Shown piece after piece: positions 481 to 59,212 of a stretch of DNA of 64,000 bases. The stretch comes from Pelagomonas calceolata (taxonomy: Eukaryota): NCBI GenBank assembly GCA_918797485.1, contig CAKKNE010000006.1, positions 3,162,001 through 3,226,000 of the forward strand. Reading direction: 5' to 3'. The notes under the pieces are model-generated. The model searched no databases. It saw only the letters and a list, made by a program, of their open reading frames with translations, and had not been told where the DNA came from. Position 1 is the stretch's first letter. Each line of letters starts with the position of its first letter. Made by a program: the position numbers and the translations under genes.

Positions 481-1251
481 ATGCCGGCTCCAACAAAAGC
501 CTGCATCATATGTGGTGAAAAAGCGTCGCTCCGATGCAGCCGCTGTCGCCGAGGGCCGTTCTGCTCGGCGCCGTGCCAGCGAAGGGACTGGCCCGCGCAC
601 CGGAAGTTGTGCGTCCAAGAGTCCCGCAAACCCGAGGTCGAGGCCAGGGCCGCGCGCAAGCCCAGCCCGATGGCGGACGTCGCGGCGGCGCTGGGGCCCG
701 TGGAGGCCTGCATTAAGAGGAAGGGCGCGGCCGCACCGGAGGATATACAAAGGAGCGACCGGTGCGTGCTGACGCTCACGCCGATGCTCTTCGGGCGCTG
801 TGGGGAGAGGGAGTGTGGCGGGGAGGGGGACGACTACGACCGGCTCCTGGCGTCGCCGCGGTCGCTGCGGAGCGAAGCCGACGCCTTCGCGAAGGCCTGT
901 GGACGGTTCGCGCTGCTGGAGCTGCTGCGGGACCCCGCGGCGGCCTTTTCGACGCTCGCCGGGCGCGACGGCGAGTGCTGCGTCGTGGAAGATTGCCGGG
1001 ACCTGGGCGACGACGTGTTCTTCACGCTGGCGCCCGCGAACGCGCCGCTGGACCGCACGCGGCGCGCCGAAGTCAATAGGGCGGTGCAGCGCGGCGCGGG
1101 CCGGTTGGACGACGTCACGGCGGCGACGGCTCAAAGATGCGGCAAGGGAGACGAGTGGGACCGGGCGTTCCGGGCCTGCGGCTGCGACCCGTCCAAGGTC
1201 GTCATAAGGGTCGACTGCGCGGACCCGGCCGCGACGTTCGAGCCCGAGTAG
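481..1251 (+). CDS. MYND-type zinc finger protein
   Basis: N-terminal CIICG...CSRCRRGPFCSAPCQRRDWPAHRKLC matches the zf-MYND pattern. Confidence 0.85.
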   Translation: MPAPTKACIICGEKASLRCSRCRRGPFCSAPCQRRDWPAHRKLCVQESRKPEVEARAARKPSPMADVAAALGPVEACIKRKGAAAPEDIQRSDRCVLTLTPMLFGRCGERECGGEGDDYDRLLASPRSLRSEADAFAKACGRFALLELLRDPAAAFSTLAGRDGECCVVEDCRDLGDDVFFTLAPANAPLDRTRRAEVNRAVQRGAGRLDDVTAATAQRCGKGDEWDRAFRACGCDPSKVVIRVDCADPAATFEPE

Positions 1252-24461: not shown

Positions 24462-24483
24462 GCTAGCGGAGTAAGACACTAGC
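24462..24483 (+). promoter_or_regulatory. Double-CTAG upstream motif
   Basis: gctagcggagtaagacactagc upstream of DPH3. Confidence 0.65.
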
Positions 24484-28685: not shown

Positions 28686-29045
28686 GGTGGCACGCATCAC
28701 GAACGCAAAGAGCAGAGCGGCAAATGACGAATGCAGCGGCAGACAGAATTATACGCCGTGGCACGTGGTCGCTGGGCTCGTTGGAGAGCTTGTGAGTTTC
28801 TCTAGTGGGTGTGCTACGCTAGCACCTGCCAGGCTCGAGTCGCAAGTTTTGCGCGCACAGCCAGCAGGTTGCATCGCCAGGCGTCGCTGTTGACCGCTGT
28901 GAACCACGCAGCCGTGCTGACCAGCAAGCGTCCGCGCAAAGCTGCGCAAAGCACTGCAAGCGACTGCAGCCTTTGCACTGCGCTGCAACAAGCTGCGCAA
29001 AGCACCGCAAGCGACTTGCAGCCTTGCAGCACTGAGCACTGTGGC

Positions 29046-45708: not shown

Positions 45709-45732
45709 GCTAGCGGCCGGTAAGACACTAGC
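45709..45732 (+). promoter_or_regulatory. Double-CTAG upstream motif
   Basis: gctagcggccggtaagacactagc between divergent genes. Confidence 0.65.
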
Positions 45733-45889: not shown

Positions 45890-47902
45890 ATGACTGAGAG
45901 CGCACCAGCCAACGCCAACGACAGCGGTGGCCGCGGACGCGGCCGTGGACGAGGAGGACGCGGGCGAGGCCGCGGCAAGGGCGGCAAGGGCAGGGGCGGC
46001 AGGGGCCGCGGCCGCGGCAAGGGCCGCGGCGGCGCCGACCAGGCCGCAGATGACGCGTCAGCGCTCCCGTACGGCGGCGACGTCCAGGCCGCGATGGCCG
46101 CGCAAGATAGGGACGCCGTCCGCGACCTGTTGAAGCACCAGGAGGCATCTAGACCTAAACCACAAAAGGACAAAAAGAAGAAGCCCCAACCCAAGAAGAA
46201 GAAGGACCGGTGGTGGCGGACGTCGACGGAAGTGGATCCTATTTCTCTAGAACCGTTGTCGGAGCTCGACTACCCGCCCTTCGAGCTCGGGCCCCACTTG
46301 TTCGACGGGCGGGTGCTGGCTTTTTACCTGGTCAGCACGGGCACGTTTCTCAACCCGATGTCGCGGGATGAACTGTCGATAGACGACTGCACGGCGCTCG
46401 ACGCGTATTTAGCACAAAATAACTTGGATCCTGCGAGAGTCGCCGACGCGTTGCGGCTCCAGAAGGCCTTGACCGTTGACACGGGTCGCGACGACTCAGC
46501 CGCGCAGCAGCAACAGCGCCAGGCGACGGCGGTGTTGCACGGCTTGTTCGGGTTCGCTAGGTATGGGGACTCGGCGACGCGGCCCGGGGCGCGTAGAACT
46601 GGCGGCGGCAATTTGCGGAGCGCCTACGACGAGGATGATAGAAGTTCGGGCGGCTTAATCGACGACGGAGACATTGGAGGCGACGAGAGCGACGAAGAGG
46701 AGGTCCTGCCGGAAGCGGCGTTCCCGACTTTATCTAGCGATGCGCCACGCGACATTGATCAAGGCGCGGGCTGGCGCCGCGCGGCCTCGTCGCAAGGGGG
46801 GGTATTGGCCGCCTCGGCGCTGACGACGGAGGACTTCCCGACGCTCGGGGGCGGGCCTACACGTCAATCAAGGCCCCAGGCCCCTGCTTATAGGAACGTG
46901 GTCCGGCCCTACGCCATCGACGCACACGAAGGGCACGTCAGGAGGGCGCCTCAAGTGCGCGACGAGCAGGTCGCGTTGCACGTGGCGCGGCCGCCGCAGA
47001 CGTACCAGGAGGCCTACCCCTCTCTCTCTGGCTCTGGGGGAAGCGCTCGTGCGCGCGTCGTGGCCGAGCAGTACCGCGCGCTCGCGCTCTCATCAAGACC
47101 GCAGCAACAACCTCAATCAGGATTGAGCAAGCGCGAGCGCGAGCGCGCGAGAAGGCGCGAGCGGGATAGAGAAAGGCGGCGCACGGAAGCGGCGGGCCTC
47201 GCGCCGCACCAGGGCGGCGGCAGCGTCGTCGCGCGCATCCGGGCCTGCGCCGGCGACGAGGCCCTCGCGCAGCTTCGGGAACGGTCGCTCGAATTTAGAA
47301 GAGGCGAGCTGTCCGCGGACGCGTTGTATGATTCGGCCAAGGCCCTGCTGCCTAGTGATCGGTTCCTGGAGCTGTTTGGGGGCCTCGTGAGCGTCATACC
47401 AGACGGCGACGCGCGCGCGGTCCTCGACGCGCTCCTCGACGAGCGCCACCCGGAACGGTCCGGCGCCGAAGTGGAGGCGCCGGCGCCTCCACCGCCCGGG
47501 CTATCGGCGCCGCCGCCCCCTCCCGCACGGCCGCCGCCCGCGGCTGCGCCGGCGCCGGCGCCACCACGGGCTTTGGCGCCGGGCGAGGCGCACTGGGCGG
47601 CGCCGCGGCCGCCGCCGCGCGCGCGCCAGCGGCCCGCGGCCGCGTCGGCGGCGGACTTCCCGACGCTGGGTTCGGGCGGCGCCGTGCCGCGCGCGGGCCC
47701 GGCGCTGCGCGGCTCTAGACCGCCACCGGGATTAGCCGCCGCGCTCGCGAAGGCCACGGGGCCGGCGCCCGGCCGCCGGGGACGCACGGGCATCGCGGTG
47801 GCGTCCCAGCGGCGCCGCGCGCCCGCGCAGCCGTCGCCGGCGCTCGCCGCGGCGGCCCAGGACTTCTCGGCGCCGCCGCCCGACCAGCGCGGGAAGAAGT
47901 AG
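45890..47902 (+). CDS. RGG-rich protein with repeated FPTL motifs (ZNF598/Hel2-like C-terminal features)
   Basis: N-terminal RG/RGG run; DPISLEPL...NPMSR degenerate RING/U-box-like segment; AFPTL, DFPTL x2, AYPSL; helical LRERSLEFRRGELSADALY domain. Confidence 0.65.
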   Translation: MTESAPANANDSGGRGRGRGRGGRGRGRGKGGKGRGGRGRGRGKGRGGADQAADDASALPYGGDVQAAMAAQDRDAVRDLLKHQEASRPKPQKDKKKKPQPKKKKDRWWRTSTEVDPISLEPLSELDYPPFELGPHLFDGRVLAFYLVSTGTFLNPMSRDELSIDDCTALDAYLAQNNLDPARVADALRLQKALTVDTGRDDSAAQQQQRQATAVLHGLFGFARYGDSATRPGARRTGGGNLRSAYDEDDRSSGGLIDDGDIGGDESDEEEVLPEAAFPTLSSDAPRDIDQGAGWRRAASSQGGVLAASALTTEDFPTLGGGPTRQSRPQAPAYRNVVRPYAIDAHEGHVRRAPQVRDEQVALHVARPPQTYQEAYPSLSGSGGSARARVVAEQYRALALSSRPQQQPQSGLSKRERERARRRERDRERRRTEAAGLAPHQGGGSVVARIRACAGDEALAQLRERSLEFRRGELSADALYDSAKALLPSDRFLELFGGLVSVIPDGDARAVLDALLDERHPERSGAEVEAPAPPPPGLSAPPPPPARPPPAAAPAPAPPRALAPGEAHWAAPRPPPRARQRPAAASAADFPTLGSGGAVPRAGPALRGSRPPPGLAAALAKATGPAPGRRGRTGIAVASQRRRAPAQPSPALAAAAQDFSAPPPDQRGKK

Positions 47903-48090
47903 CCCGCTTGCCGCACTTGTGGCGCCGCCTCCTCCTCCTGGCCAGCGCGGGAAGAAGTAGCCGCGCCGTGCGCCCGCTTGCCGCACTTCTCGGCGCCGAA
48001 GTATAATGTTGTTGATAACTCACTGCCAGTGCGCCGCGGCCGCCGCTAGCTACTGGCAACACGCCATCGCCGCGATCCATTATCAGACAA

Positions 48091-48711
48091 TTAGGTTATG
48101 AACGCGACCCCGGCGGCGCACTCGTCCCTGTGCCCCGCGAGCCAGTGCGCCTTGCGGCACGCGTCCCCGCAGTAGCGCGGCCCGCCGCAGCCGTCGCAGC
48201 GCTCTAACGGTTTGTCCTCTGGCCGCTGGCCGCAGCTGTCGCAGACGCGGCCGCGCTCGGCGCGCGCCGCGGTGGCCCTCCGAGCCCGCTCCTTCAGGGC
48301 CGCGAGCTCGGCCTTGCGCCAGGCGAGGTCGGCCTCCTTCCGCAAAATTTGCGAGCGCAGCTCCATCTCTTCCGCCCGATCCTCGACGAGCGCGACGACG
48401 CGGCCTCGTACCGCTTCGGGCAGGCGCGCGACGGCCAGCCGGATCTCCTTTACTTTTTCGGCGACGATGGCGCCACCGTAGCCCGCGTCCCGGAGCCGCT
48501 CGAGGGCCCGGAACTCGCTCGCCACACGCGCCACCGCCACGGCGGCGTCATCTGGCGGCGGGAGGGTCGCCGGACTATTTCTCCCGGAGCTCGATTGCGG
48601 CGGGAGGGTCGCCGGACTATTTCTCCCGGAGTTTGATTGCGGCGGCGGTACGGAGGGCGGTGGTGGAGGGGTATTTGCTGCCGGGGCGGCCCGGGCCGTC
48701 CAGTTGTTCAT
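48091..48711 (-). CDS. Protein with C-terminal MYND zinc finger
   Basis: CDSCG...[30 protein letters not shown] overlaps the NOP10 stop. Confidence 0.82.
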
Positions 48712-48905
48712 AGCGCATCGCGTTCTTTTTGCGTGGGCAGTAGCCCAAACCGCTTCTTGCACGCGAGGCGCTGCGCGCTGAACTTGTCGTCCGGCGAGAA
48801 GCGCGCGGGGTGCGCGCTGAGGGTGGGTTGCTCTTCCTCGCCGTGGGACTTTTTGAGGGTGTAGACGCGCTCGCCCTTCTCGTTGAGGTAGTACATGAGG
48901 TGCAT
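48708..48905 (-). CDS. NOP10: H/ACA snoRNP subunit NOP10
   Basis: [19 protein letters not shown]...[14 protein letters not shown]...[10 protein letters not shown]. Confidence 0.96.
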
Positions 48906-49314
48906 GGTTGTCGGGGGAGCTGCGGCGCTCGTCAGGCGAACCTGTGATGAGTTAGGCTGGCGCTGCGGCGAGTGTCGATTTTGAGTGGAGGGCAAGGAGC
49001 TAGCGGCTGTGAGGCACTAGGCAAGGCAAAACAGCAGGAGGGAGGGCGTTTCCAATTCCCGAGACGCGTCTCGTCCCCGCCGGAAGGATCGGCGCGCATT
49101 TGGATCCAAAATCAGCGGCTGTCACTTTACCAAAAGCCAAGTGCTTATCACTTCCTGTTGCTGCCGGTTGAAGCTGCGTGCCCGCCTAGCAGCCAGGAGC
49201 AGGCGCGGCGGAAAGCCGTAACGACGCGCGCTGCAGCGCGCTTGTGTGTAACCGTTCTCCGGATTCCCCGCTGCTCCTGATTTTCCCAATCTTAGTGACT
49301 AGCGCTGCTGCGCC

Positions 49315-50136
49315 ATGGCCGAGCACCTGCAGGTGGCGGATGCTGACACGGCAGCATTACAAGCGCGGCTCGACGCGCTGGAGAGCGAGACGCACTCGCT
49401 GCGCGAGGTCCTCACGGAGCGGCTCAAGCGCGACTCCTTGGACGAGGCCCTGCCGACGGGGCGCGGGCAGCGGCGGTCGCGCGACAAGCCGCGAGGTTCG
49501 AGAAGTTCCCGCGGCTCGTTTGAGCGAAGATCGCGGTCGCCGGAGCCGCCGTCGGGCGGCCGGTTCCGGTGGGTCCGCGGCGACGACGACGCCAAGAGTT
49601 TGGCGCGACTCGTGGTCGGCGCCGCGATGCCCGACGCCGTCGTCGGCTTCCCCGTGGACCTGCACGCGAAGTACGAGGCGAACGTGAATACGGCGCTGAA
49701 GGGCGTCGCGATCGCGGCGCGGCGCTGCCTCGAGGACCGCGACTTACATTTAGCCTGCGCGCCGCGGTTCCGGGACAACCGCAACGAGCTCACGGCGAGC
49801 GTCTACCCTCTTCTGGAACGACCTCCCGACCCGGACGCGCCCGACGTCGAGGTCCTGACCGTCGCGCGCGCGACGGACTACCGCGTCCTTGCGGGTGCGG
49901 TCGCGAAGCGCGCGCGCGACGGGCAAACTTCTCGGTTAAGAGCCATCGGCGCCGCCGCCGTGTTTACCGCTGCTAGAGCGGTCGCGACGGCGCGCGAGTA
50001 CCTGGCCGACGACGCGACGCGCTCGTCGGTGGCCTGCGTGCCGCGCTTCGCAACCGTACAGTTCGACGGCCGCGCGGAAGAGACGACGATCCTCGAGGTC
50101 GTCGTCTTCCGCGTCGCCGTCGACTCCGACGACTAG
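49315..50136 (+). CDS. Tandem SpoVS-like (Alba-fold) domain protein
   Basis: VLTVARATDYRVLAGAVA...LRAIGAAAVFTAARAVATAREYL...CVPRF, plus a degenerate N-terminal copy (NVNTALKGVAIA...CAPRF). Confidence 0.75.
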   Translation: MAEHLQVADADTAALQARLDALESETHSLREVLTERLKRDSLDEALPTGRGQRRSRDKPRGSRSSRGSFERRSRSPEPPSGGRFRWVRGDDDAKSLARLVVGAAMPDAVVGFPVDLHAKYEANVNTALKGVAIAARRCLEDRDLHLACAPRFRDNRNELTASVYPLLERPPDPDAPDVEVLTVARATDYRVLAGAVAKRARDGQTSRLRAIGAAAVFTAARAVATAREYLADDATRSSVACVPRFATVQFDGRAEETTILEVVVFRVAVDSDD

Positions 50137-58977: not shown

Positions 58978-59212
58978 CGGTGCGCGTCGCGCCGCGCCGG
59001 CGTGCGCAAATGGGGTGCCCTTGGCCCCCCAGGCTTGCAAAATGAACTGCGAGCCAGAAGCGCTCGCTGGCGTTCTGGGCTGCGTCAGCTGTGATGGCTG
59101 GCGCCTCGCCTTGCCCGTGGGCAGCCCTTGCACGCGCTTTGCGGCGGCTGGCGGCCCAAAAAAAGGTGAATGCTAGTGTCTCTACGGCCGCTAGCCTCTG
59201 GCGGCGGCCTAG

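Follow-up and report, generated by a model that had tools for sequence, protein, structure and literature searches.

A nuclear locus of a likely pelagophyte, where the stop codon ending NOP10 (a subunit of the H/ACA snoRNP) is overlapped by the start codon of a MYND-finger ORF (ORF2), is real, conserved, and likely bicistronic. We propose, as a model to which we give an even chance, that both ORFs share one mRNA and that the ORF2 protein is produced by termination-reinitiation: a single start site upstream of NOP10 would give one bicistronic mRNA carrying NOP10 and ORF2; ribosomes finishing NOP10 would reinitiate on the overlapping AUG and synthesize the ORF2 protein; and the small, strongly initiated NOP10 would in this way lend its promoter and terminating ribosomes to a low-abundance partner. 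Reinitiation is preferred to leaky scanning, and these two mechanisms are not mutually exclusive. The novelty likely lies in an exact-overlap variant of the known algal bicistrons, found here in a likely pelagophyte.

The NOP10/MYND locus and its RNA

The window (the whole 64,000-nt stretch of DNA that was analysed) is GC-rich and intron-poor, and the junction on its minus strand is gat gcg ctA TGA ac, with the A at 48711 and the TGA at 48710-48708 (Table 1). The sequence-only reading had proposed that the NOP10 TGA overlaps the ATG of a 206-aa zf-MYND ORF, and both the overlap and the ORF (48711-48091) were found as described. The two ORFs are separate, each with its own start and stop, and both are protein-coding by Pfam and dN/dS: Nop10p (PF04135) matched ORF1 with an E value of 1e-20 (73.9 bits; curated Pfam cut-off, 27.2), and zf-MYND (PF01753) matched ORF2 with an E value of 2e-9 (37.9 bits; curated cut-off, 22.7) over model positions 1-39 of 39. 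A second MYND-finger gene is present in the window at 481-1251 (+), with its own double CTAG at 233/251.

Table 1. Positions of features at the NOP10/MYND locus and of both sister pairs.
Feature	Position	Strand	Details
Double-CTAG motif, CTAGTG...GCTAG	49000..49020	-	CTAG at 49000 and 49017; 20-48 nt 5' of RNA 5' ends
RNA 5' end cluster	48962..48980	-	Main site 48972; leader about 57-75 nt; four stranded poly(A) runs
ORF1 = NOP10 (H/ACA snoRNP subunit), 65 aa	48708..48905	-	AUG context acaaccATGC, very strong
Out-of-frame AUG	48716..48718	-	7 nt 5' of ORF2 AUG; opens 32-39 codons; also in L001-L003
ATGA stop/start overlap (-4)	48708..48711	-	Identical in 3/3 close wild loci (L001-L003)
ORF2, 206 aa, coiled-coil/MYND finger	48091..48711	-	ORF scan, Pfam, dN/dS, AlphaFold2
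42-bp tandem repeat, 2.2 copies	48555..48645	-	In frame, N-terminus of ORF2; single copy in L001-L003
zf-MYND domain, aa 157-198 of ORF2	48118..48243	-	Pfam
Farthest 3' reach of RNA-like contigs	48082..48091	-	Just past ORF2 stop; X5 piece ends 48082, X6 piece 48089
DPH3-like (CSL zinc finger) ORF, 71 aa	24736-24951	+	ATGA into GT8-like ORF; Pfam
GT8-like ORF, 434 aa	24948-26252	+	Starts at ATGA overlap; Pfam
LYR ORF, 75 aa	56488-56261	-	TGATG into rhomboid ORF; Pfam
Rhomboid ORF, 288 aa	56261-55395	-	Starts at TGATG overlap; Pfam

Transcription was followed mainly in four stranded poly(A) raw-read runs from one sample (X21-X24), 6-12% of each of which was read. The 5' end at 48972 was found in all four runs (20, 8, 7, and 9 molecules, respectively), with others at 48962, 48978, 48979, and 48980, and this cluster is likely the transcription start. 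Minus-strand depth over the junction bin was 79-153 with no break, and the runs contained no joints, no indels, and no second 5' end cluster at the locus, with none at ORF2 (start sites with under a fifth of the local depth escape this listing of 5' ends). An independent MYND start site, which had been raised as the contrary possibility, was thus looked for in four stranded runs and not seen. The earlier claim that the two ORFs are coupled, with a tiny housekeeping ORF in the lead, is supported by this single 5' end cluster, the gapless depth at the junction, the conserved overlap and ORF2 start, and two sister pairs (see below).

The double CTAG had been described as lying upstream of NOP10 only. 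The position holds: no CTAG occurs between the NOP10 start and the ORF2 stop, and the next one downstream is a single copy at 48046, past the ORF2 stop. However, the motif is not special to this locus, with 10 matches to CTAGTG-N8-12-GCTAG in the window (0.08 expected), most of them preceding ordinary genes. Pairs of CTAGs at a spacing of 14-20 nt number 16 in the window (1.7 expected; maximum of 8 in 2000 random placements), and NOP10 is preceded by a double CTAG in L002 and L003 and by a single CTAG in L001. By its position, we infer that the double CTAG functions as a general promoter motif of this genome. The likely core-promoter element, CTAGTG(TCTTAC)...GCTAG, has 16-18 nt between the CTAGs and often lies between divergent genes (e.g., 233-254, 2886-2907, 24463-24482, 28802-28822, 45710-45731, and 59173-59194); no description of it was found in a literature search. 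The NOP10 leader and promoter (48930-49000) align poorly with L001-L003, in contrast to the conserved coding region and the bases immediately past the ORF2 stop. Divergent from NOP10 is a eukaryotic gene with a SpoVS domain (E value of 1e-19; 49315-50136, +), the 5' ends of which are at 49156-49173.

The depth in X21-X24 fell from 36-138 at 48461-48511 to 0.6-4 at 48257-48307, before the MYND finger, over which it was 3-6 in X21 and 0 in X22-X24. Since X21 also fades over the final 800 nt of coding sequence in the convergent ZNF598-like gene (63-90% GC; 22.9, 7.3, 2.6, and about 0.5 in succession), the collapse near 48300 is taken to be partly GC/3' bias. On the other hand, the drop is 30-fold or more, compared with a 4- to 6-fold dip in the 76% GC part of the SpoVS-like gene, and looks steeper; an early end is therefore possible for some of the mRNA. 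Among the loose ends at 48300-48340, there were none with poly(T). In two other studies (X5 and X6), contigs tile the locus from 48082/48089 to 48956/48979, interrupted only at the 42-bp repeat. Intergenic gaps are uncovered in both, and they are therefore taken to be RNA-like, their RNA status being itself a guess. The mean depths of the ORF2 and NOP10 pieces were 212.6 and 517.7 in X5 (ratio of 0.41) and 34.5 and 23.6 in X6 (1.5), respectively. In X14, a seawater poly(A) metatranscriptome, summed depths in bins from NOP10 to past the ORF2 stop were 780, 696, 378, 338, 74, and 3. The coverage in X5, X6, and X14 indicates that RNA spans all of ORF2 in three further datasets, and the stretch was also present in seawater metatranscriptomes.

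Early polyadenylation after NOP10, the other possibility raised against the pair, is thus countered only in part: the four runs lose depth near 48300, whereas contigs of two other studies reach the ORF2 stop. An mRNA simply ending near 48300 was rejected on the basis of these contigs and the similar fade of the neighbouring gene, and is retained as a rival in part. Splicing out of the Pro-rich N-terminus of ORF2 as an intron (a CAG at about 48552 is acceptor-like) was also rejected, as there were no joints in X21-X24 or in the contigs there. All of the RNA evidence is short-read, and Logan contigs cannot prove a single molecule; nevertheless, at least a share of single molecules very probably reaches the ORF2 stop. 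As separate observations, a joint in a wild contig goes back 116 nt at an imperfect direct duplication (47862-47977) where the ZNF598-like gene has its 3' end, and reads show low-level letter differences (up to about 18%) within NOP10 (48691-48867), clustered and strand-pattern-like, probably through sequencing error.

Conservation of ORF2 and its predicted protein

A search over 5.8 billion proteins found 33 homologues of ORF2 besides the window's own, and all 34 sequences are from close marine relatives. The start at the same Met (MN[ND]W[TK]A[RQ]A) is shared by 28 of the 33, with 26 intact from the overlap Met to the finger and 2 sharing the start and diverging later; the other 5 are partial or otherwise started. 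A relative with 62% identity still starts with MNNWTARA, though it also carries, at aa 41, another in-frame Met, which gene callers picked in 4 of 7 cluster members. The Pro-rich N-terminus comprises 40 to 74 residues before the core across homologues, with the frame kept throughout, a count of in-frame indels that is biased because gene callers favour open frames. In the DNA of the window and L001-L003, dN/dS of ORF2 was 0.08-0.19 in 6 of 6 pairs (helical core, 0.05-0.10; finger, 0.03-0.15; N-terminus, 0.29-0.49), and substitutions by codon position were 10/9/54, 12/11/40, and 10/12/43. As judged from these sequence comparisons, ORF2 is under purifying selection from the overlap AUG. The next in-frame Met is aa 116, within the conserved core; therefore, no later AUG could yield this core.

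The overlap is retained in L001-L003 at a dS of about 0.3-0.5, with ORF2 of 191, 199, and 197 aa, respectively. Among the 80 NOP10 loci examined (366 confirmed), the pairing and overlap were absent from 77, those with 78% identity or less, and the pairing is therefore lineage-restricted as far as tested. When the ORF2 alignment was scanned against viral contigs and genome contigs, there was no match.

The AlphaFold2 model of ORF2 had a mean pLDDT of 72 (mostly under 50 for aa 1-50), and its predicted layout is a disordered Pro-rich arm (1-52), a helical hairpin plus a long 55-residue helix (53-153), and the MYND finger. The closest folds in Foldseek were MYND domains, none at an E value of 0.001 or lower, and the ESM Atlas returned generic MYND clusters only, under 0.9. 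ORF2 resembles the coiled-coil-MYND modules of BS69/ZMYND11 in its layout of a long helix ahead of a MYND finger at the C-terminus (5hda, rank 14), a weak match (E value of 0.11, TM of 0.23) from which no orthology follows. From general knowledge of MYND fingers, the protein is presumably a protein-binding adaptor. No link of ORF2 to H/ACA snoRNPs is evident, and no functional tie between the NOP10 and ORF2 proteins is implied.

Sister pairs and the probable translation of ORF2

A scan of the 64-kb window for same-strand pairs of coding-like ORFs with gaps of -20 to +60 gave exactly three, at -4, -4, and -1 (Table 1). The overlapping Met is the start in 68 of 83 homologues of the rhomboid ORF. 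The closest homologue of the GT8-like ORF starts at the overlap Met, and two more begin with Met-Thr, compatible with ATGA; its best named relatives are from Chrysophaeum taylorii (60%) and Pelagophyceae sp. CCMP2097 (56%). The assignment to a likely pelagophyte is based on such best hits and not on a tree; the LHC gene matched antenna proteins, chlorophyll a/c-type ones among them, at a strength insufficient for placing the host. The DPH3-like/GT8 pair has a double CTAG at 24463/24479. Tandem gaps in a hand-picked gene list, which is not a full annotation, were 142-1889 nt in 8 of 11 cases and -4, -4, and -1 in the other 3, and the stop was overlapped by an ATG in none of 23 ordinary genes of the window. 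We tentatively suggest, as somewhat doubtful, that pelagophytes have a genome-wide class of bacteria-like coupled nuclear pairs, in which tiny NOP10, DPH3, and LYR ORFs would hand terminating ribosomes to an unrelated gene via ATGA or TGATG without a viral-type RNA element. If the window is typical, three pairs per 64 kb would correspond to hundreds per genome.

Start contexts were scored with a matrix built from 26 unverified starts in the window. Among 1103 window ATGs, that of NOP10 ranked in the 99th percentile; its A at -3 is kept in L001-L003, and it scored 3.98 bits versus 0.14 bits for the ORF2 AUG, the reverse of the weaker ORF1 start expected for leaky scanning. The sister ORF1 starts were in the 7th and 51st percentiles, ORF1 being weaker than ORF2 in the DPH3-like pair and level with it in the LYR pair. 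The ORF2 AUG itself has a middling context, and the AUG at 48716..48718, equally strong in 4 of 4 sequences, is a competitor of it for scanning ribosomes. Between the NOP10 and ORF2 starts there are 2 AUGs, about 1.5 being expected (0.9 in frame and 0.6 out of frame). Because the NOP10 context is very strong, ORF2 is likely to be reached by termination-reinitiation; the -4 overlap also has the geometry of reinitiation (an out-of-frame start no farther than about 20 nt from the stop). UGGGA is a TURBS-like motif. TGGGA was absent within 100 nt in the window locus and L001-L003, covariation supported 1 of 29 pairs of the junction RNA structure (term +0.62; 4 sequences), and neither a shared junction structure nor a TURBS motif was found. 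The overlap may act like TURBS-type termination-reinitiation without being a member of that class, and, in the accessible text of PMC10275272, AUG-on-stop is the geometry of known reinitiation sites.

The same bicistronic mRNA may alternatively yield ORF2 by leaky scanning past the NOP10 AUG, the overlap being merely genome compaction, which we regard as possible and rather unlikely. Leaky scanning is the mechanism shown for green-algal bicistrons, which have weak ORF1 contexts and spacer medians of 40-260 nt (available parts of Gallaher 2021, PMC7896298, and Duenas 2025, PMC11892635). The short leader (about 67 nt), the tiny ORF1, the two intervening AUGs (one in a weak context), and the weak or average ORF1 starts of the sister pairs are consistent with it, and a leak of a few percent could suffice for a regulatory protein. 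However, the conserved NOP10 context belongs to the window's strongest class, the ORF2 AUG is preceded in all four sequences by a similarly strong AUG that is out of frame, and overlaps are found here in place of such spacers; furthermore, leaky scanning needs no AUG on the stop, yet 3 of 3 pairs have one. The exact overlap in three pairs is left without a reason if NOP10 mRNA is mostly monocistronic, ending near 48300 or earlier, and ORF2 comes from a rare transcript starting inside NOP10. The depth collapse in the four runs, small molecule-end clusters at 48299 and 48332, and depth that climbs by 10-20% toward the junction in 3 of 4 runs agree with such a transcript, but neither a 5' end cluster nor a double CTAG lies within 48711-48905, X6 contig depth is not lower over ORF2 than over NOP10, and ribosomes on a transcript starting internally would still come to the out-of-frame AUG before that of ORF2; we consider it improbable.

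Two further explanations dispense with initiation at the overlapping AUG. A -1 ribosomal frameshift in NOP10 would give a NOP10-MYND fusion, and in 4 of 4 sequences no stop interrupts the ORF2 frame anywhere in NOP10, as also holds for ORF1 of the two sister pairs. Since chance alone often leaves the -1 frame open (in 64 of 160 ordinary 70-codon windows) and ORF1 sequence occurs in 0 of 191 proteins examined, a fusion of about 270 aa being within the length range searched, this is very unlikely; moreover, no conserved X-XXY-YYZ heptamer was seen by eye in the alignment, and the AUG, which a fusion does not need, is conserved. The least likely explanation, and one largely refuted, is that ORF2 is an untranslated relic in the NOP10 3' UTR: the low read depth over the finger in four runs and the codon usage of its N-terminal 54 codons, below background, are in line with this, whereas the low dN/dS of the core and finger and the 26 of 33 homologues intact from Met to finger argue against it. 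Termination-reinitiation on the bicistronic mRNA is thus the reading that we prefer.

Other NOP10 neighbourhoods and known systems

NOP10 is followed by other ORFs elsewhere. In another GC-rich eukaryote (L040 1-1273 and L024 1-1616), a Nop25/NOL12 ORF (312 and 308 aa) lies 54 and 41 nt after NOP10, respectively; L040 begins 29 nt before NOP10, ends in 10 A's, and thus has the look of a complete bicistronic mRNA encoding two nucleolar proteins. A 2OG-Fe(II) oxygenase lies 22 nt after NOP10 in L022 (80-1364), a TraB-family ORF 101-106 nt after it in six loci (L004-L008 and L015), and a PH-domain ORF 85 nt after it in L025. NOP10 may recur as a first cistron.

According to the accessible part of PMC11761812, nuclear polycistronic mRNAs without trans-splicing occur in green and red algae, some fungi, Drosophila, and Cryptosporidium. 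Our literature searches, with supplements of the green-algal papers and most subscription papers outside their scope, found no nuclear bicistrons in pelagophytes and no NOP10/MYND locus, and neither "bicistronic" nor "dicistronic" occurs in the main text of a pelagophyte genome paper (PMC9481584). The annotation pipeline of that paper cut back UTRs that ran into the coding sequence of an adjacent gene and discarded short single-exon models lacking a protein match, and such overlap units would thereby be hidden from annotation. The distance rules for reinitiation in eukaryotic mRNAs are stated to be unknown in the available text of PMC10275272. Stop/start overlaps that occur naturally between cellular genes, with a very strong first AUG in one case, would allow a direct test of routine eukaryotic reinitiation without a viral tethering element, and the weight of the locus lies in this testable case for cellular termination-reinitiation together with the clustering of exact overlaps.

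With the green-algal nuclear polycistronic loci, as presented in the parts of the sources available, the pair shares a tiny ORF1, a longer unrelated ORF2, separate starts and stops, one promoter, and a short leader; LYR-motif proteins are frequent in those loci, and a LYR ORF heads one sister pair here. It differs in being from a likely pelagophyte (stramenopile), in the overlap (-4/-1) instead of a spacer, and in the strong instead of weak context of the NOP10 AUG, and the NOP10/MYND case rests on short reads and sequence. The CDC26-TTM3 bicistron of Arabidopsis and green algae (accessible text of PMC11892635) similarly joins a very small housekeeping ORF1 to an unrelated ORF2 on one mRNA, but its conservation extends through plants and green algae, whereas of 80 NOP10 loci just the 3 closest had the NOP10-MYND pairing. 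Where viruses and retrotransposons use termination-reinitiation, at AUGA/UAAUG (caliciviruses, influenza B, HvV190S, and CHV1; PMC10275272, in part), the stop and start share nucleotides and ORF2 is in the -1 frame, as at this locus; here, however, the genes are cellular and nuclear, with no TURBS-like UGGGA or supported RNA structure. Prokaryotic coupling at ATGA/TGATG (PMC6728339, in part) involves the same overlap types, -4 and -1, while the present locus is eukaryotic and nuclear and is seen in poly(A)-selected RNA, and its partners are, as far as their Pfam families indicate, not subunits of one complex.
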